From Escherichia phage pEC-M2929-1AR.1: a stretch of 64,000 bases of DNA. Below, in pieces: positions 3,905 to 59,775 of the stretch; position 1 is the stretch's first letter, and the number at the start of each line of letters is the position of its first letter. The stretch lies in the sequence record OP177727.1; one strand, written 5' to 3'. The notes beneath the pieces are model-generated. The model ran no database searches, was not told the DNA's origin, and saw only the letters and a list, made by a program, of their open reading frames with translations. A program made the position numbers and the translations under genes.

Positions 3905-5638
3905 TTAGTCAACCTGGATGGTTCCCATAGTACGAAGAACCTCTACATCAACACGGTTGCGGATATCAGTGAATGTTTCATCACGTCCTTCTACTTGTGG
4001 TGTAATAACCTTACCATTCTTGAAGATAACTTGTAACTCATTGTCTTCATCCTGGATATCTTTAAAAGAAAGATTATCTACAAGAGAAAGATTACCATTG
4101 GTATCCTTAACAACCTTAATAAAACCTTTTGCAGAGCGTTTACCAGGATCAGTTTTAGGCTCCTTACTTACCAAAATTTCGTGTTCACCGATGATACTAC
4201 CTGTTGCTTTAACAGCAAAACCAAAAGTATCTCGTGTATTGAACTGATAAGTATAACTACCAACACCAAATACAATATTGGAAGCTGCAAAACCTTTCTT
4301 CTTCAGTCGGCGTAAGATCTCGTGTTCTCGTTCAACAGTAATAGAATCACCATAAATCATACCGATATGCTGATCAAGAACCTTGTAACCTTTTCGGTTG
4401 ATAGTACCACCAAACACTTCCCAAAGGATTTGAATAGAACCTACTGCTTCACAATAAGGAATCTCATAAGTTTCATCAATGCAATCAGCAACACTGCAAT
4501 CCTGAAGAACATTGTAATACTTATTAACATCAGCCAAATGAACTACTTCAGTGGCTGTCGCAATACCATTATTTAAGAGGTCTTCATAGTTATCAAAAGA
4601 TTCAACATTGTATCCTGCAACAACTTTAACCGGATCTCCTGAATCTGGACGAATAACAAGACGACCATTTCGTGACATAATGGAATCTTTCAATTCTACC
4701 AGAATGCGAGTCAATACAGCCCAATAGTCATAAGAGTCTGCTACATATGAACAAAAACCTTCTGGAACAATTTCTTCGATATAACGACGAAGAAACTCTT
4801 TTTCTGCTACATAACGAAGCCCATCTACATCATCTTTAAGATGTGGAAAATGTTTCTTCAGATCTTCAACAATAGCTCCAATGTTAGTCGTTGCTACTGA
4901 ATGTTCTGTTGCCGGAATCGAACCTGCAACAAACTGATCATAATCAATACCATAATAATCATGCACAGTTTCAATAGCCAGAATATTATCTGTTCCTGTG
5001 AACGATGCCAAGTGAGCGATACCACTCTTATAACCATCTTCGATATTACTTAAACCACGTAGGCTAAAGTCATGACACTGGAAGTTAACGTGATCAATAT
5101 TATCACACGTTGCCATCGCATATGCCATAGCGATACGCTTATACTGAAAAGCTGCTGTAGCGTTAGTCATTGTCTTCCAAGTTTCATCTGACAACAGTGT
5201 TTCCACATAGTTAGTTAACCAAAAGAATTTTTCTAAAGTATTATGCACAGTAAACACAGGAACACCAATAGGACACAAAACACCTTCTGGCAGAGATCGA
5301 ACTTCCAGCGGAAGATAACCTAAATCGTGCAATTCTCCCCAACATTCAGCAGAAGGAGCAGAAGCACCTAATGCATTTTTAGACATACGATAAAATTTAT
5401 TTACTGCTGCACTACGAGACATTTTAAAGAAGCTATCCCACATAGTTACAAGAGCATCAGTGACTGCTCGACGAATACCTAAAACAATCACACCACGTGC
5501 TTCACGATCTGCATAGTGTGCAAAGTTTTTATCATTACGAGGAGTTAAATTAGAGAAAATAAGTTTTGTATTTTGGTTGTACATCTGCTTGTGACCAGGT
5601 TTGTACCAATCAGTAGCAAAAGGTGCAAAAATATTCAT
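3905..5638 (-). CDS. nadV: nicotinamide phosphoribosyltransferase family protein (NadV/NAMPT-like; candidate Namat of a NARP1-type module)
   Basis: 577 aa; NAMPT-family blocks DWYK, LPLEVRSLPEG, FTVHNT, HDFSLRG, SFTGTDN, RPDSGDP recognised by eye against known NAMPT sequences. Confidence 0.85.
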   Translation of the reverse strand: MNIFAPFATDWYKPGHKQMYNQNTKLIFSNLTPRNDKNFAHYADREARGVIVLGIRRAVTDALVTMWDSFFKMSRSAAVNKFYRMSKNALGASAPSAECWGELHDLGYLPLEVRSLPEGVLCPIGVPVFTVHNTLEKFFWLTNYVETLLSDETWKTMTNATAAFQYKRIAMAYAMATCDNIDHVNFQCHDFSLRGLSNIEDGYKSGIAHLASFTGTDNILAIETVHDYYGIDYDQFVAGSIPATEHSVATTNIGAIVEDLKKHFPHLKDDVDGLRYVAEKEFLRRYIEEIVPEGFCSYVADSYDYWAVLTRILVELKDSIMSRNGRLVIRPDSGDPVKVVAGYNVESFDNYEDLLNNGIATATEVVHLADVNKYYNVLQDCSVADCIDETYEIPYCEAVGSIQILWEVFGGTINRKGYKVLDQHIGMIYGDSITVEREHEILRRLKKKGFAASNIVFGVGSYTYQFNTRDTFGFAVKATGSIIGEHEILVSKEPKTDPGKRSAKGFIKVVKDTNGNLSLVDNLSFKDIQDEDNELQVIFKNGKVITPQVEGRDETFTDIRNRVDVEVLRTMGTIQVD

Positions 5639-26454: not shown

Positions 26455-26652
26455 ATGATGCTAGATCGACTGATCAATGCTCCTCGCGTAACAGTAAGTC
26501 CAAAAACATTTGCATCACTTTTAGAAGATGCTAGAGAGGTTTATAACTTTACTGAAGAAGAGATTCCTGTTCCTGTTGAAAAAGGTTCCAGATGGTTGTT
26601 TTATGAAGGTATTATTTTTACTGAAGGAAATAATTGGAAGGAGACTAAATGA
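26455..26652 (+). CDS. hypothetical protein
   Basis: Track ORF 26362-26652 trimmed to ATG at 26455 after AAGGAGGATAG. Confidence 0.45.
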   Translation: MMLDRLINAPRVTVSPKTFASLLEDAREVYNFTEEEIPVPVEKGSRWLFYEGIIFTEGNNWKETK

Positions 26653-27638
26653 AATACTTAGTAACAGGTGGTTTAGGCTTTATTGGAAGTGCAGTAGTTC
26701 GTTTCCTGGCTAAAAATACTAAGAATGATATTTACGTTATAGATAAATGGGGTTACGCTTCAGACCCTAGAAATTTATCAGAAACACCTAATGTAAAGTT
26801 TTGTCGTGTTGACTTGACAAATGCTCAGTTAACTGCTAAGATTGTGGCAGATGTTAATCCAGATTATATAATGCATCTTGCAGCAGAAAGTCACGTAGAT
26901 AATTCAATAGCATCACCGAGTGTTTTTATAAATTCAAATATTGTTGGAACATTTAATCTTCTAGAAGCTGTTCGTTTAATGGGAGATAAATCAAATCTTA
27001 AAATGTTTCATCATATTTCAACAGATGAAGTGTATGGTGATATGGAAGAAGGGGATTATCCGTTTACAGAACAGAATCCTTATAAACCAAGTAGTCCATA
27101 TGCTGCATCTAAAGCTGCAAGCGATCATTTGGTAAGAGCGTGGCATCGTACTTATGGTATTCCGACAGTTATAACAAATTGTTCAAATAATTTTGGAGCA
27201 TATCATCATCCAGAAAAACTAATACCTAAAACGATAACAAATATCTTGATGCATAAACCAATCCCTGTTTATGGTAATGGTCTTCAAGTAAGAGACTGGT
27301 TATACGTTGACGATCACGCAGAAGCATTACACCTAGTAGTAACTAAAGGCAAATCTGGAGAAACATATAATATTGGGAGCAGAAACCCTAGAACTAATAT
27401 TGATGTAATCTATATGATTTGTGATTATATGGATGCGGTGTATCCATCTGAAACAGATGCTTGTAGCCTCATTGAGATGGTTACAGATAGACCTGGGCAT
27501 GATTTAAGATACGAAGTGAATCCTTATAAGATTGAAAAGGAATTAGGGTGGAAAGCTAAAGGCACATTTGAAGAAAAACTTTATTCAACCATTGATTGGT
27601 ATGTAGATAACAAAGAGTGGTGGGAAAATAAAGTTTAA
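26649..27638 (+). CDS. rmlB: dTDP-glucose 4,6-dehydratase
   Basis: N-terminal [14 protein letters not shown]-binding motif, catalytic YAASKAASD (YxxxK), about 329 aa. Confidence 0.85.
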
Positions 27639-27646
27639 GGAGGAGT

Positions 27647-28516
27647 ATGAAAGGTATTATCTTAGCAGGTGGTAGTGGAACAAGACTTTACCCAGTTACT
27701 AAAGGGGTTAGTAAACAACTATTACCAATTTACGATAAGCCTATGATTTATTATCCACTCTCTGTCCTAATGCTTTCTGGAATTAGGGAAATACTAATAA
27801 TTACAACACCAGAAGATCAAATTAATTTTGTAAATCTTCTAGGTGATGGTTCTTCTTTTGGTATTTCCCTACAGTATGCAATACAAGAAAGCCCGAAAGG
27901 TTTAGCAGAAGCGTTTATTATTGGTGAGAGCTTTATTGGCGAAGATTCTGTAGCACTTGTGCTAGGTGATAATTTATTCTTTGGTCAGAGTTTTGGTAGC
28001 ATTTTAGATTCTGCTAAAGAATATATTGAAAAGAATGGTGGAGCTAATATTTTTGGGTATCACGTAAATGATCCTGAAAGATTTGGTGTTGTTGAGTTTG
28101 ATTCTGAAGGTACAGTGGTGAGTATTGAAGAAAAACCAAAAGCACCAAAAAGCAACTACGCAATCACAGGCTTGTACTTTTACGATAATTCTGTTATACA
28201 GAAAGCTAAGAGCGTTAAACCTTCTGCTAGAGGGGAGTTAGAGATTACAGATATAAATGAGATGTACTGGAAAGAAAAGACTTTACGTGTCTGTAAACTA
28301 GGAAGAGGTTTCACTTGGCTGGATACAGGAACACATGAAAGTCTTATGGAAGCATCTCAATTTGTTCATGCAATAGAAAAGCAACAAGGTATGAAGGTTG
28401 CATGCCTAGAAGAGATTGCTTTTAAAAATGAATGGATTACTTTAGACTCTGTAAAAAGTTCTGGAGAGGTTTTAAGTAAAACAGACTACGGTAAGTATTT
28501 ACTTAAATTAAAATAA
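27647..28516 (+). CDS. rmlA: glucose-1-phosphate thymidylyltransferase
   Basis: [18 protein letters not shown] nucleotidyltransferase signature, 289 aa. Confidence 0.9.
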
Positions 28517-28528
28517 AGGGGGAATTAA

Positions 28529-29083
28529 ATGATTCAAGCAACAAAAATCGAAGATTTGTTGATCATTCAACCTGACGTTTACGGAGATGAACGTGGCTTT
28601 TTCTTAGAAAGTTTTAATCAGGCTTTATATGATCAATACATAGGTAAACAAAACTTTGTCCAGGATAACCACTCACGTTCTATTCGAGGAGTTCTACGTG
28701 GGCTTCATTTTCAAAAGAAAAACCCACAAGGGAAGTTAGTACGTTGTGTTCGTGGTGAAGTTTATGATGTTGCTGTAGATATTAGGGTTGGTAGTCCGAC
28801 ATTTGGAGAATGGGTAGGTGTTCTTTTATCTGAAAAGAATAAAACACAATTTTGGATTCCTCCTGGTTTCGCTCATGGCTTTGTTGTGATTAGCGACATT
28901 GCTGATTTTGAATATAAATGTACAGAATATTACGATCCGACTTCAGAGTGTAGTCTTGCGTGGAATGATCCAGATATCAATATAGATTGGGGTTTTGATT
29001 TAATCTTTAATGATATTAATTTTAAACCTATCTTGTCACAAAAAGATCAGCAAGCCAAAACACTAAAGGAGATCATATTTTGA
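28529..29083 (+). CDS. rmlC: dTDP-4-dehydrorhamnose 3,5-epimerase
   Basis: Cupin-fold epimerase with RGLHFQ signature, 184 aa. Confidence 0.85.
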   Translation: MIQATKIEDLLIIQPDVYGDERGFFLESFNQALYDQYIGKQNFVQDNHSRSIRGVLRGLHFQKKNPQGKLVRCVRGEVYDVAVDIRVGSPTFGEWVGVLLSEKNKTQFWIPPGFAHGFVVISDIADFEYKCTEYYDPTSECSLAWNDPDINIDWGFDLIFNDINFKPILSQKDQQAKTLKEIIF

Positions 29084-29910
29084 CAAAATTTTTAATCTTT
29101 GGTTCAAAAGGTCAATTAGGACAGTCTTTGGCAAAAGTTGCGCCCGAAGATGTTATTTTGATTGAAGCAAGTGATATAGACATTACCAACTTTAAAGATG
29201 TTATGAATAGTCTTGTACAGCACGTGCCTGATGTTGTTGTGAATTGTGCAGCTTACACGGCAGTAGATAAAGCTGAAGAAGATGTTAACACTTGTATAAA
29301 TGTTAATGCATACGGCGCAACAAACATTGCCAAAGCATGTAATGATTTACTGATACAGTTTGTACATATTTCAACAGACTATGTTTTTGATGGGCATGTT
29401 GCTGGCACAGAAGAGAGTAAAACAAACCCCTTGAACACCTACGGTTACAGTAAACAATTAGGTGAAACTTTAGTACAAGCAGTTTGTCCTACAGCACTTA
29501 TTATCAGAACAGCTTCTGTTTATAGTGAATTTGGACATAACTTTTTGAAAACTATGTTGGAACGCTACAACGGTGGTCAAAAAGAATTTAATGTAGTATG
29601 TGATCATTTGTCATGTCCTACTTATGCACCTGATCTTGCAGAAACAATTTTTAAACTTGTAAAAGATGGTGTAAATAGTAAAATTGTACACTATGCAGGT
29701 GCAGATTATATTTCTTGGTATGATTTTGCACGTAAGATATTTCTTGTTATAGATTTATCTGTTACAGTTAATCCTGTATCTGCTTCAACCTATAATTCTA
29801 AAGCAGTCAGACCAGCAACATCTTATTTAAAAACAGATCCTACTTTAAATCCGCGAAGTGTTGATAGCGGTATTGTAAGAACTTTAACTATACTTTTAAA
29901 CAAGGAGTGA
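29080..29910 (+). CDS. rmlD: dTDP-4-dehydrorhamnose reductase
   Basis: Short-chain reductase fold, FGSKGQLG N-terminus and YGYSK (YxxxK) catalytic motif; completes rmlBACD. Confidence 0.75.
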   Translation: MTKFLIFGSKGQLGQSLAKVAPEDVILIEASDIDITNFKDVMNSLVQHVPDVVVNCAAYTAVDKAEEDVNTCINVNAYGATNIAKACNDLLIQFVHISTDYVFDGHVAGTEESKTNPLNTYGYSKQLGETLVQAVCPTALIIRTASVYSEFGHNFLKTMLERYNGGQKEFNVVCDHLSCPTYAPDLAETIFKLVKDGVNSKIVHYAGADYISWYDFARKIFLVIDLSVTVNPVSASTYNSKAVRPATSYLKTDPTLNPRSVDSGIVRTLTILLNKE

Positions 29911-30333: not shown

Positions 30334-30834
30334 ATGGCTAAAGTAGTTGATGTGTTTGATATGTTACGTTTTGATGAAGGACTAAAGCTAACTGTATATC
30401 CTGATACCGAAGGATATTGGACAGTTGGTATTGGACACCTTCTGACAAAACTCAAAGATAAAGCAGAAGCTATACGCATTCTTGATAACTTAGTAGGTAG
30501 AAAAACCAATGGAGTTATTACCGAAGCGGAAGCTAGAAGAATCTTTGAGAGTGACGTAAAGAAAGCGATACAACAAATCCATTCAAGTACCATACTATCT
30601 CCTATTTACGATAAAGTAAGTCCTAATCGTAAAATGGCTATTATTAATATGGTATTTCAAATGGGCTTGAAAGGTGCAGAATCTTTCAAAAATAGCTTGA
30701 CTTTAGTGAGTAATTCATATTATACTCAAGCCTCTATAAATTTACGTAAAAGTAAATGGTATCGCCAAACGCCTAATCGCGCAGAGCGTGTAATTCAGGT
30801 GCTTAAAACTGGAACATTAGACGCTTATAACTAA
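30334..30834 (+). CDS. e: T4-type lysozyme (endolysin, glycoside hydrolase family 24)
   Basis: N-terminus FDMLRFDEGLKLTVYPDTEGYWTVGIGH closely parallels T4 lysozyme ([28 protein letters not shown]). Confidence 0.9.
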   Translation: MAKVVDVFDMLRFDEGLKLTVYPDTEGYWTVGIGHLLTKLKDKAEAIRILDNLVGRKTNGVITEAEARRIFESDVKKAIQQIHSSTILSPIYDKVSPNRKMAIINMVFQMGLKGAESFKNSLTLVSNSYYTQASINLRKSKWYRQTPNRAERVIQVLKTGTLDAYN

Positions 30835-30835
30835 A

Positions 30836-30860
30836 CAAAGGGGCGAAAGCCCCTTTTATA
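30836..30860 (+). terminator. intrinsic terminator (AAAGGGGCGAAAGCCCCTTTT)
   Basis: GC stem, GAAA loop, T-run directly after lysozyme stop. Confidence 0.65.
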
Positions 30861-30872
30861 AGGAGTGCAAAC

Positions 30873-31625
30873 ATGGGAAATAAAACCGCAAAGGCTCGTC
30901 GTCAATCAGCAGCCAATGATGACAAACGTGCCAGTCGTTATGCGGCTAAAGCAGTAGGAAATGATGATTACCGTCTTGATGAATTTACCCCTGTTGGGAA
31001 TCAAGAAGCTATTGTAAGAAGCATGGTTTGGAATGATTTAACCATTGTTAATGCCCCAGCAGGAACAGGAAAAACGACAACAGCACTATGGAAAGCATTG
31101 CAAATGCTTAAAGCTGGTGACTTCAGAAAGTTGATTTTCCTTAAAAACCCGACAGAAGTAGGTGATGACCAAATTGGTTTCTTATCTGGAGATAAGACTG
31201 ATAAACTAGCAGCACACTACGAGTCAACTAAAAGAATTTTCCAACAGTTTATGACTGCAAATAAATTGGAAAACGATATTGCAAGTGGCAAAATTGAACT
31301 TAATATTCCGAACTATGCACTAGGTGCTACGTGGGATAACAGCATTATTCTTATTGATGAAGTTCAACTTATGTCACCAAACACAGTAAAACTTCTCCTT
31401 GAGCGAGCAGGTCTTAATACACGTATTGTCATTATGGGCGATGTTAATCAAACATATGCAATTAAACGAAGAGCTAACGGGTTAGGTGATTTGTTAGATC
31501 GTGTTGTTCCTATTAACGAAGAAGGAGAAAGGGAAGCTATTGTAGATTTTATTGGTTATGTTGAAATGACAACTGCTGATAACCAACGTTCCCGTTTGTC
31601 TCAGTTCATCACGGAAGTATATTAA
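30873..31625 (+). CDS. phoH: PhoH-like ATPase
   Basis: Walker A VNAPAGTGKTT and PhoH-like length (250 aa). Confidence 0.8.
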   Translation: MGNKTAKARRQSAANDDKRASRYAAKAVGNDDYRLDEFTPVGNQEAIVRSMVWNDLTIVNAPAGTGKTTTALWKALQMLKAGDFRKLIFLKNPTEVGDDQIGFLSGDKTDKLAAHYESTKRIFQQFMTANKLENDIASGKIELNIPNYALGATWDNSIILIDEVQLMSPNTVKLLLERAGLNTRIVIMGDVNQTYAIKRRANGLGDLLDRVVPINEEGEREAIVDFIGYVEMTTADNQRSRLSQFITEVY

Positions 31626-31661: not shown

Positions 31662-32156
31662 ATGACGCTAATTGAGATTGATCGCAATGGTATTGATGAA
31701 TGCTATCAAGCTGGCTTAGTTAAGCCGAATGAGTTTAGACAGATTTATATTGACAAGATTGAAAAAGAAATATCTCTTCGTTTAGAGAACATGACAACTT
31801 TGCAAAAAGTTCAGATGTTTTTTAGTTGGTTAAAAGGAGAGGATTGGCTAACTAAATATTACCAGGAATTATCTGATAGTCAAGAAGGCTTGTTTGAGTG
31901 TATAATAAATGTAGCTGGGTCTAATTCAGAATTACTCCTGATTGATGAAGAAGATTCTAAACTTCTTTTTCTTAGCAGTATCTTTCACAAGAAATCTATG
32001 TTAGTAAGAAATTGCAGTGATTTACTAAATCATCCACTAACAAGAACCAATAAAATTCTTGTGGATAAAGAAACACTAAGAGCTATTGATTACCTACGTA
32101 AGTATGTAAGCGGTGGTAAAGCAGTCCTTAAAACACTACAGGAGGAAGTACAATGA
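31662..32156 (+). CDS. hypothetical protein (164 aa)
   Basis: ORF track; GGAGG RBS. Confidence 0.5.
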   Translation: MTLIEIDRNGIDECYQAGLVKPNEFRQIYIDKIEKEISLRLENMTTLQKVQMFFSWLKGEDWLTKYYQELSDSQEGLFECIINVAGSNSELLLIDEEDSKLLFLSSIFHKKSMLVRNCSDLLNHPLTRTNKILVDKETLRAIDYLRKYVSGGKAVLKTLQEEVQ

Positions 32157-32806
32157 CAACAATTATTGCAACACATAACAAAATTCTATCTGACGGTAAA
32201 GTAACAGTAGGTAATCGAGTAGACACTTTAAATTTCAAGAAAGTGCGTAAAATTGGGGATTACCTTGTTGGTGGTGCAGGACGTCTGTCTTCTATCCTGA
32301 CTTTCTTTTCTTGGTTCGAACAAAACTTACAGTGCCAGGCAGCACAAGAGACAATCCCAGGTTTGGTGATCCAGTCAGATCCTGATAAAGAAGATGAAGA
32401 GTTTGTGGCATTGGTTGTTCACCCAGACGGTAAAATTTATATGCACGAGGGTAATAATCCAACGCGAGCATATCCTTTAACTGAAGATTACTATGCTGTT
32501 GGTAGTGGGGCAGATTTTGCTTTAGCAGCTTTAGACGCTGGGGCAACCCCAGAAGAAGCGATGGAAGTTGCAAAACTACGAGATGCTTTTTCAGGCGGTG
32601 AAACTTTTGTCGAAGAGATCGAAGAACAACTGGAGCTAACAGCGGAAGATATTCTGAACTTCAGCAAGGAGCAACTAATTAGTATGCTGTTGACTGGTGA
32701 TCCTGATAGTGATGAAGCTGAAAGTATTTTAGCAGAGATGAAAGAATCACAAGAAAAAGTATTGACAGTCTCTGAAAAACTTGATAAAGTATCCTCTGAT
32801 AATTAA
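32153..32806 (+). CDS. HslV-like Ntn-hydrolase peptidase with acidic C-terminal extension
   Basis: MTTIIA (Thr right after Met), GGAGRLSSILTFFSWFE and AVGSGADFALAAL blocks parallel E. coli HslV (TTIVSV..., AGFAGGTADAFTLFELFE, AIGSGGPYAQAAA). Confidence 0.55.
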   Translation: MTTIIATHNKILSDGKVTVGNRVDTLNFKKVRKIGDYLVGGAGRLSSILTFFSWFEQNLQCQAAQETIPGLVIQSDPDKEDEEFVALVVHPDGKIYMHEGNNPTRAYPLTEDYYAVGSGADFALAALDAGATPEEAMEVAKLRDAFSGGETFVEEIEEQLELTAEDILNFSKEQLISMLLTGDPDSDEAESILAEMKESQEKVLTVSEKLDKVSSDN

Positions 32807-32814
32807 TCTAACAT

Positions 32815-32838
32815 AAACCCCCTCACGGGGGTTATTAG
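32815..32838 (+). terminator. terminator-like hairpin (ACCCCCTCACGGGGGTT)
   Basis: GC stem-loop after stop of upstream gene followed by T-containing tract and RBS of next gene. Confidence 0.4.
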
Positions 32839-58453: not shown

Positions 58454-58511
58454 GAGCGGCACTATTGCCGCCCTACGCAATACATTCTACCCTATTTATA
58501 ATTATTGTCAA
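58454..58511 (-). promoter_or_regulatory. early promoter plus hairpin module (TTGACA-N17-TAGAAT, hairpin GCGGCAATAGTGCCGC)
   Basis: Minus-strand TTGACA (58506-58511), TAGAAT, GTATTGCGTAG, hairpin variant shared with the 62262 module. Confidence 0.55.
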
Positions 58512-58512
58512 A

Positions 58513-58782
58513 CTATTTTTTCAAGCTCGACCAGTCAAAACACGGCGGGATCTCGTTAAAACTTGTGCCCTGTAAAGCACATAATTTTTTAGCAATAGCC
58601 GCCGTGACCTGGCGCTGTACGCGCGGATCTGCTACTGATTGGAGAAAGTAGGCGGCTTTATATGTGATCATGCTTTCGCCTGTTTCCTTGCTAACATGAT
58701 GCACTATTTTAGCCTTATCATCTTTTACCAGGGTGTAACCGGATTCGATGGCCTTGATTGCAACGTCCAATGATATTTTCAT
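58513..58782 (-). CDS. hypothetical protein (89 aa)
   Basis: ORF track. Confidence 0.5.
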   Translation of the reverse strand: MKISLDVAIKAIESGYTLVKDDKAKIVHHVSKETGESMITYKAAYFLQSVADPRVQRQVTAAIAKKLCALQGTSFNEIPPCFDWSSLKK

Positions 58783-58801
58783 GATTTATCTCTTTATTGA
58801 T

Positions 58802-58822
58802 GGCGGGGAATACTCCCCCGCC
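58802..58822 (-). promoter_or_regulatory. stand-alone intergenic hairpin (GGCGGGGGAGTATTCCCCGCC) without an adjacent promoter
   Basis: Perfect palindrome between the stop of the 58829-58999 gene and the RBS of 58513-58782; upstream sequence is coding, no TTGACA. Confidence 0.5.
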
Positions 58823-58828
58823 TTATTA

Positions 58829-58999
58829 ATTACTCTTCATCGTCGCCGTTGTAGTATTCAATGCCGTTTTCATCGGTTACGGTAATATTAACGCCACCGA
58901 TAGCAACACGATCACGGGCAAATGTCATGGCTTCATTTAAATCTTCAGACCAAAAAATATTGTGACCTTTGCGCGATACGTAAAACATAGTTGGGATCA
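58829..58999 (-). CDS. small hypothetical protein (about 56 aa)
   Basis: Hand-translated MIPTMFYVSRKGHNIFWSEDLNEAMTFARDRVAIGGVNITVTDENGIEYYNGDDEE; below track cutoff. Confidence 0.4.
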
Positions 59000-59021
59000 T
59001 GATTTGTTTCTCTTCTGCTGT

Positions 59022-59083
59022 GAGCGGGAAACCATTTCCCGCCCTATGTGATAAACTTTACTACGTTGTTTGCCTACTGTCAA
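59022..59083 (-). promoter_or_regulatory. early promoter plus hairpin module (TTGACA-N17-TAAAGT, hairpin GGGCGGGAAATGGTTTCCCGC)
   Basis: Minus-strand TTGACA (59078-59083), TAAAGT, TTATCACATAG, hairpin. Confidence 0.6.
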
Positions 59084-59084
59084 A

Positions 59085-59369
59085 TTATTTTTTAATGTTT
59101 TGCCCTACAAAATTGATCACTTCCTTAAGCTGTTTCTCAGTCATGATCGTGCCTGGTAATTCTTGTTTTATTTCTTCCGGCAAATAGATATTACCGCGCC
59201 AGGTTAATAAACAACCGTTTTGATCTTCGCAGATAGAATAAGAGAAGATCCACTCATTATCATTCTCAAGCTCCCAAAAGCACAAAAAATCTTCTTTCCC
59301 TAAGTTTTCAACGGTTAAGCATAAGCCGCGACGTGCTGCATAGTTGGAAAGTGCTTTTGTGATCTTCAT
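59085..59369 (-). CDS. hypothetical protein (94 aa)
   Basis: ORF track. Confidence 0.5.
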   Translation of the reverse strand: MKITKALSNYAARRGLCLTVENLGKEDFLCFWELENDNEWIFSYSICEDQNGCLLTWRGNIYLPEEIKQELPGTIMTEKQLKEVINFVGQNIKK

Positions 59370-59388
59370 ATCTTATCTCTTCTGTTAA

Positions 59389-59451
59389 GGCGGGGAAACC
59401 ATTTCCCCGCTCTATGAGATACAATATATTACTTATCAGGTGTGCTGTCAA
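59389..59451 (-). promoter_or_regulatory. early promoter plus hairpin module (hairpin GCGGGGAAATGGTTTCCCCGCC)
   Basis: Minus-strand TTGACA (59446-59451), conserved CATAGAG motif, hairpin variant with one extra G-C pair. Confidence 0.55.
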
Positions 59452-59775
59452 TCAATAATCTTTAATATTTTCTACATTTACAAAAGTGAGTTTATTTTCT
59501 AAGTTTTCGCCGTACCATTGCCCCATGTTGATTTCTGCGGTGCGCAACCAGGACATGCCGCGTTCTATCTTTTTGCTTGCAATGTCGATCCGGCTTTTAC
59601 ATAGTGCTTTAGCTTGCAATGTAAAAACACTATTGCCCTGTAATGCTTCCAGGTCATCATGTGCAAGGCGATACTCTTTAAAGCCTGATTCTATCATTTC
59701 AATCGCATCAAGTAAACGCGCACGATGATAGAAAAAATCAGAGTTATCCAAATAAACACCGATCACAGATTTCAT
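59452..59775 (-). CDS. hypothetical protein
   Basis: Track ORF 59452-59835 trimmed to ATG at 59775 after AAAAGGGTAAAATT; promoter TTGACA-N16-TAAAAT at about 59825-59857. Confidence 0.5.
   Translation of the reverse strand: MKSVIGVYLDNSDFFYHRARLLDAIEMIESGFKEYRLAHDDLEALQGNSVFTLQAKALCKSRIDIASKKIERGMSWLRTAEINMGQWYGENLENKLTFVNVENIKDY

Follow-up and report, generated by a model that had tools for sequence, protein, structure and literature searches.

A proteasome homologue of predicted PPH/RPC type with a conserved motif in its acidic C-terminal extension, encoded by Escherichia phage pEC-M2929-1AR.1

The 64,000-nucleotide stretch of Escherichia phage pEC-M2929-1AR.1 (OP177727.1) analysed here, referred to as the window, encodes a 217-residue N-terminal-threonine peptidase homologue which, by sequence, profile and predicted fold, is a member of the proteasome-beta/HslV family (likeness well above chance) but not an HslV orthologue. 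Its predicted properties fit a phage proteasome homologue of the PPH/RPC type, matched to the published PPH and RPC proteins by their description. The best explanation, held with moderate confidence, is an oligomeric threonine peptidase of this type that would act independently of an unfoldase, carry an acidic docking or assembly tail outside its core and serve an accessory function in the early or middle phase. Since an HslV/proteasome annotation of this gene is already present in many GenBank records, the observation is not new, and the question of what phage proteasome homologues do has likewise been posed in the literature. The present contribution is a refinement, comprising (i) the distinction from HslV orthologues, (ii) a conserved tail motif, (iii) a conserved three-gene run and (iv) a natural deletion variant. 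The peptidase gene and its parts are as follows.

32153..32806, + strand: coding sequence of the 217-residue proteasome-like (PPH-type) N-terminal-threonine peptidase homologue (open reading frame including stop, ATG start)
32140..32145, + strand: Shine-Dalgarno sequence AGGAGG, 7 nt before the peptidase ATG
32153..32620, + strand: catalytic N-terminal nucleophile (Ntn) core, residues 1-156
32621..32698, + strand: acidic linker and helix-turn-helix with the subfamily motif, residues 157-182
32699..32803, + strand: variable acidic C-terminal helix/tail, residues 183-217, net charge -7

The open reading frame at 32153-32806 is a real gene. It begins with the codons ATG-ACA-ACA (Met-Thr-Thr), and the position of AGGAGG fixes this start, so that Thr2 becomes the N-terminus once the methionine is removed. 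The claim of the preliminary description that a Met-Thr-Thr start would allow exposure of the threonine is thus borne out by the reading frame, the Shine-Dalgarno position and the lack of a propeptide. A lack of conservation of this threonine among homologues, named there as one of the findings that would speak against a peptidase, was not observed: of 145 representatives at a clustering level of 50 %, 129 have threonine as their second residue, T2 and T3 are present in all 56 close homologues, M1, T2 and T3 are invariant in a 22-row alignment, and most distant viral loci likewise encode a threonine directly after the initiator methionine.

Identity of the window amounts to 100 % with Escherichia phage vB_EcoM_AMO3598 (PQ226818.1) and to about 99 % with several further phages, among them alia, phi92 and PaulScherrer (Stephanstirmvirinae, Justusliebigvirus; phi92 group). 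The peptidase gene corresponds to Phi92_gp058 and to JR320_gp183 (gp183) of phage alia, and the labels given to it in GenBank records of relatives include 'peptidase HslV family', 'putative 20S proteasome', 'putative proteasome component' and 'nucleophile aminohydrolase'. Four records labelled 'Campylobacter phage' (MG065639.1, MG065645.1, MG065656.1 and MG065689.1; host C. jejuni) are nonetheless 98.8 % identical to the phi92-type region and likely represent mislabelled or contaminating coliphage.

Membership in the proteasome family is indicated by PHROG_1040 ('peptidase HslV family'), matching residues 1-212 with E=1.5e-62, by Pfam Proteasome (PF00227), the gathering score of which is narrowly passed (24.4 versus 22.4 bits), and by HslV of T. 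maritima (1m4y, E=2.4e-7) as top sequence match among solved structures, HslV being the best match there by sequence as well as by fold. The Pfam score together with a predicted beta-sandwich Ntn fold bearing a catalytic triad places the protein among the proteasome-like Ntn hydrolases (PF00227/MEROPS T1). By alignment, the complete proteasome active-site set is present and conserved, with T2 (Thr1), D14 (Asp17), K30 (Lys33), G40-G43 (oxyanion glycine region), S118 (Ser129 in 20S, Ser124 in HslV) and R143-D144-x-x-S147-G148-G149 (Asp166/Ser169/Gly170 of 20S) as equivalents. Both the 22-row and the 56-sequence alignment show T2, D14, K30, G43 and G117-S118-G119 as invariant, D144, G148 and G149 are invariant in the latter, and the glycines of G40-G43 (aligned with E. 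coli HslV) are listed among the invariant residues of the phage family. The RDxxSGG segment was aligned by hhalign on 'QRDSASGG' of a 20S beta subunit (T. acidophilum); this 20S-type motif is kept by the phage family and missing from E. coli HslV.

The designation as HslV-like in the preliminary description, which also proposed a comparison with HslV by hidden Markov models, is therefore to be divided. A proteasome/HslV-type homologue is supported by PHROG_1040, PF00227 and 1m4y, but orthology with HslV is not, since the protein scores 34.5 and 32.2 bits against the NCBIfam HslV equivalog models (NF003964/TIGR03692; cut-offs 137 and 157.75), i.e., about 100 bits under the thresholds, and the second helix of HslV (H2) is replaced. 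In the AlphaFold2 (AF2) model, helix H1 spans residues 45-67, and the position of H2 (residues 68-83) is taken by a proline-containing loop predicted as coil (predicted local distance difference test, pLDDT, 66-77). The prolines at this position are conserved in the phage family (consensus Q...P.L.I...PD..DEEF). Thus, the phage peptidase shares with HslV (ClpQ) the threonine nucleophile behind the initiator methionine and the equivalents of Asp17, Lys33 and Ser124 in the alignment with E. coli HslV, but differs by the loop in place of H2, a first hairpin shortened by four residues, the loss of nine residues between H3 and H4, the RDxxSGG motif, an additional C-terminal extension and the lack of an hslU partner gene.

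Compared to 20S beta subunits and the bacterial proteasome homologue (BPH), which has no known unfoldase, the phage peptidase lacks an alpha subunit, a propeptide, H2 and the C-terminal S12/H5 elements. Closer agreement exists with the phage proteasome homologues PPH and RPC described by Fuchs, Alva & Lupas 2021 (PMC8665760), which lack H2 and co-occurring AAA+ interactors and for which these authors found no informative genomic context. Shared properties are the phage origin, a compact beta-like core with Thr1, Asp17, Lys33 and Gly47, and the lack of a propeptide, of H2 and of a co-occurring AAA+ protein; a C-terminal extension is present in RPC and in the window peptidase. However, PPH comprises about 140 residues, whereas the window peptidase consists of a core of about 156 residues followed by a 60-residue acidic, motif-bearing extension, and reports of RPC are restricted to genomes of proteobacteria, whereas the subfamily of the window peptidase is essentially confined to phage contigs.

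The distribution of related proteins is consistent with this placement. At E<1e-30, a profile search covering 1.84 billion representatives yielded 57 proteins, most of which are extended forms (about 160-350 residues), and the matches grade continuously into proteins of about 140-155 residues starting with MTT (1183 representative clusters at E<=1e-10), which fits PPH. In BFVD, 48 viral structure clusters match the peptidase model at E<=1e-3. A pattern scan of 185,579 species genomes, which finds close relatives only, detected the extended subfamily in a single 425-bp fragment; judged by these searches, the subfamily appears to be essentially phage-only. Its observed hosts are Escherichia, Klebsiella, Aeromonas, Vibrio and Shewanella, all of them gammaproteobacteria. 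'HslV genes without HslU' have been remarked upon for jumbo phage pSal-SNUABM-04 (PMC7823757), and in Erwinia phage RAY a protein of the HslV family is located in the phage nucleus. The literature searched contained no functional work on phage HslV/PPH or on the 'proteasome' genes of phi92 and phAPEC8.

The acidic C-terminal extension noted in the preliminary description is confirmed: residues 156-217 comprise 17 D/E versus 5 K/R (net -12), in a protein that is acidic throughout, core included (net -23). Helices are predicted for residues 164-169 and 172-181 (pLDDT 66-74), followed by a long low-confidence helix at 188-213. A subfamily motif with the consensus [ST]K[ED]E[LI][LI]xx[LIM]F, represented in the window by SKEQLISMLL (residues 171-180), occurs in 27 of 62 extended representatives (>=180 residues) and in none of the 83 short ones; it is preceded by an acidic linker and located exactly 29 residues past RD..SGG in 17 of 20 cases. 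The tails beyond the motif differ in length and sequence among relatives (up to 379 residues). A search of the PDB with the C-terminal half alone gave no useful match, and a Pfam search of the long extensions of relatives for known domains gave nothing apart from a faint Rho_N match (E=0.39, P0086). In several longer relatives (P0075, P0084, P0086, P0094, P0096 and P0122), the C-terminal 40 or so residues resemble a helix-hairpin of the HeH/Rho_N type, e.g., LRGVCDSLEIQYSSKTTKQVLAECI; such a terminal segment is lacking in the window peptidase.

A resemblance of the tail motif to the activating C-terminus of HslU (KEELLxxLF versus EDLSRFIL) was considered as possible mimicry and retained only as a weak idea, since Phe441, which is essential in the activating tail (PMC4106860), is paired with a variable position and the motif lies inside the chain. 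The conserved motif does suggest a specific partner, and one may therefore consider that the protein acts as a specific transpeptidase or ligase (connectase-like), as a non-peptide amidase, or as a non-catalytic decoy titrating a host factor via its acidic tail. The strong conservation of the full proteasome catalytic set argues against a decoy, and this group of functions is overall regarded as improbable.

The claim that no AAA+ partner is encoded nearby holds as well. With E. coli HslU as query, tblastn gave no match to the window or to the whole genome of phage alia (99 % identical), and no HslU-like gene accompanies the peptidase gene at a distance of up to 6 kb in 56 + 114 (170) related viral loci. 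Phage alia does encode two paralogous classical-AAA ATPases (gp071 and gp101; PF00004, phrog_2376), situated about 36-52 kb away and outside the window at 58476-59636 (- strand) and 73617-74744 (+ strand) of NC_052655.1 (corresponding to L006 8476-9636 and 23617-24744); a counterpart in PQ226818.1 is found at 4464-5588. The two proteins of about 380 residues are 42-47 % identical to each other, weakly p97/Cdc48-like, and have N- and C-terminal domains without assigned function. Their family (phrog_2376) is widespread in large phages and present in 379 phage records, most of them without the peptidase; it includes Herelleviridae, which are not among the peptidase matches. In one record, an ATPase of this type is labelled 'FtsH-like protease'. 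In the peptidase-bearing Aeromonas phage PAc, no tblastn match to the gp071/gp101 family was obtained (E <= 1e-3), and the annotated PAc ATPase (gene 0007, the sole one checked) shows no relationship to either gp101 or E. coli HslU. The C-termini of gp071 and gp101 (..GGRSY, ..LASVF) resemble neither HbYX nor HslU-like tails. Because the family occurs mostly without the peptidase, has no match in PAc and carries the wrong C-termini, gp071 and gp101 were rejected as dedicated partners of the peptidase.

Since no HslU/Clp-type gene is present in the phage or in the 170 related viral loci, we infer that the peptidase may act without a dedicated unfoldase, as proposed for BPH or for uncapped 20S proteasomes. 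In such a PPH/RPC-type mechanism, host methionine aminopeptidase would expose Thr2 as the nucleophile, and the enzyme, catalytically competent as far as the conserved active site indicates, would probably assemble into a ring-shaped or similar oligomer by analogy to other family members. Suitable substrates would be peptides or unstructured or otherwise exposed protein segments. The acidic extension of about 60 residues, predicted to lie outside the core, most likely mediates assembly or the docking of a partner or substrate.

The principal alternative is that HslV-like rings of the phage peptidase dock host HslU (ClpY), the tails of which would activate the peptidase while unfolded host or defence proteins are fed into it. 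Apart from HslV being the best match among solved structures, this possibility draws on the presence of HslU in E. coli (C-terminus ...ADEDLSRFIL) and on the pocket of E. coli HslV that receives the HslU tail, formed by Phe54, Phe57 and Gln114, with Ala79 and Lys80 of H2 nearby (PMC6429459). Phe57 of this pocket aligns with the invariant F52 of the phage peptidase and Phe54 with L49, but Gln114 aligns with Y107 and the H2 segment corresponds to the proline-containing loop; the modelled HslU-docking surface is accordingly partly kept and partly remodelled. Further points against docking of host HslU are the deletion of four residues in the first hairpin, the retained 20S-type RDxxSGG and the additional acidic extension, as well as the occurrence of PPH-type proteins in Actinobacteria, for which HslV is unlisted in a published table (PMC8665760). 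Because H2 is replaced by the proline-containing loop and the HslV equivalog scores are far too low, use of host HslU is somewhat disfavoured, and we consider it unlikely, while ranking it above the other alternatives. None of the present results speaks to the degradation of host regulators or defence proteins that the preliminary description proposed.

Several points nevertheless weigh against unfoldase-independent action. HslV, the closest solved relative, degrades slowly on its own and is activated by binding of HslU. The match of F52 to Phe57 of the HslV pocket belongs here, as does the restriction of all observed hosts of the extended subfamily to gammaproteobacteria, with E. coli K-12 (the sole host checked) encoding HslU; as the HslU content of the hosts was checked in this strain only, the host distribution provides no argument against activation by host HslU. 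Moreover, the missing linked ATPase gene is negative evidence only, and biochemical data on any PPH-type protein were not found in the literature searched.

The peptidase gene is the last of three consecutive genes, the first two of which are listed below together with a hairpin that follows the third.

30873..31625, + strand: PhoH-like P-loop nucleoside triphosphatase (NTPase; Pfam PhoH, E=1.4e-35), first gene of the run PhoH - gp184 - peptidase
31662..32156, + strand: upstream open reading frame, alia gp184 (phrog_14834), all-alpha protein of unknown fold, ATGA-coupled to the peptidase gene
32816..32833, + strand: GC-rich hairpin AACCCCC-TCAC-GGGGGTT just past the peptidase stop, without T-run, z = -1.5 (weak)

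The peptidase start codon shares ATGA (32153-32156) with the TGA stop of gp184, from which translational coupling of both genes is predicted. The downstream hairpin may act at the end of the unit as a weak terminator or as an element of RNA stability; a similar GC-rich hairpin without T-run is located at 30837-30856 between the lysozyme and PhoH genes, so that two hairpins flank the run. In phage FBKp34, the annotation places a promoter ahead of PhoH, at the corresponding junction with the lysozyme gene. A sigma-70-like site (TTGACT-18-TATACT) is present in the window at 30697-30726. The peptidase would be expressed from this run as part of an early/middle nucleotide-metabolism block. Immediately upstream of the glutaredoxin-lysozyme-PhoH genes, at about 26650-29910, a complete dTDP-rhamnose pathway is encoded (alia gp192-gp189, annotated as glucose-1-phosphate thymidylyltransferase, 4,6-dehydratase, 3,5-epimerase and reductase).

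The order PhoH - gp184 - peptidase is kept throughout the lineage while the downstream genes vary, which, together with the ATGA overlap, the FBKp34 promoter and the flanking hairpins, could be taken to indicate a functional module with gp184 as adaptor or regulator and the PhoH-like NTPase providing energy-dependent handling of substrates or nucleic acids. A gene for PhoH also directly adjoins the peptidase gene, in both orders, in a few lineages that lack gp184 and look unrelated (L058, L120, L164 and L077), and the deletion in phage VEcB described below takes out exactly this unit. Across the 82 peptidase groups, however, PhoH is found within 1.5 kb in 7 and not nearby in the remaining 75; phages carry this gene very commonly, several other families occur just as often as neighbours, and no dominant conserved neighbour was recognised among these groups (top families each <=8 groups). 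The gp184 protein is limited to one phage lineage, with no homologue encoded beside the Aeromonas or Vibrio peptidase genes according to BLASTP or hhalign, and shared descent may alone explain the conserved order among related phages. PhoH-like proteins are NTPases resembling helicases, and protein unfolding is not known for them. Such a three-gene module is thus given only a small probability, and a still smaller one applies to the specific version in which the PhoH-like NTPase and gp184 as new-fold adaptor deliver substrates to a peptidase docked via its acidic C-terminal motif. If true, this machine would represent a protease with energy coupling of a new kind, serving large phages as an accessory device for host takeover or counter-defence.

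The natural deletion concerns one assembly of phage VEcB.

31217..32338 (approximate), no strand: interval deleted in VEcB (NC_052663.1), 1,122 bp, with the 8-nt microhomology GCAGCACA at the junction

Comparison with the VEcB region (NC_052663.1 21495-22298, i.e., L072 601-1404) revealed that gp184 is lost entirely, together with the 3' half of phoH and the N-terminus of the peptidase, which bears the equivalents of Thr1, Asp17 and Lys33. The junction joins PhoH residues 1 to about 114, with the reading frame preserved, to a peptidase portion that starts at about residue 63 (P0043, 267 residues). The full unit is intact in a second VEcB assembly (OZ035773.1) and in 53 of 55 close records. The peptidase is therefore dispensable in at least one natural isolate, and since this isolate lacks the catalytic unit, the unit is accessory for growth on the isolation host. 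The variant represents a natural knockout of the PhoH - gp184 - peptidase unit that could be used for phenotype tests.

A role in virion morphogenesis, i.e., as a protease processing prohead or ejection proteins, was considered in view of the genomic surroundings of short relatives. Genes for such relatives (about 140-165 residues) are found near co-directional genes for terminase, portal (DUF4055 or P22-type), MuF-like and capsid proteins, e.g., in loci L040, L042, L074, L080-L083, L089, L092, L105, L107, L136, L167 and L170. In 34 of 82 groups, head genes of these kinds share the strand of the short relative at a distance of up to 6 kb, and in some loci (L042, L074, L082, L089 and L092) the short relative is encoded between head genes. 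In addition, phage alia revealed no recognisable canonical prohead protease or scaffold; for gp003 (NC_052655.1 1892-3007, 371 residues), encoded outside the window between portal/methyltransferase and head-decoration/capsid genes, no match was obtained to Pfam, to PHROG functions or to sequences of the PDB. Against this function, the peptidase gene is located about 35 kb from the head genes within the nucleotide-metabolism/early block, the VEcB deletion mutant is a viable isolate, and proximity within 6 kb is about the random expectation for genomes of 40-60 kb (a rough estimate, nothing having been computed). A morphogenetic protease is thus highly improbable.

Phage proteasome homologues are widespread. 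The tail motif, the three-gene run and the natural knockout make the function of the peptidase easier to test, and an account of how such a homologue would operate in the absence of an unfoldase would shed light on phage-host conflict as well as on the way the proteasome family evolved.

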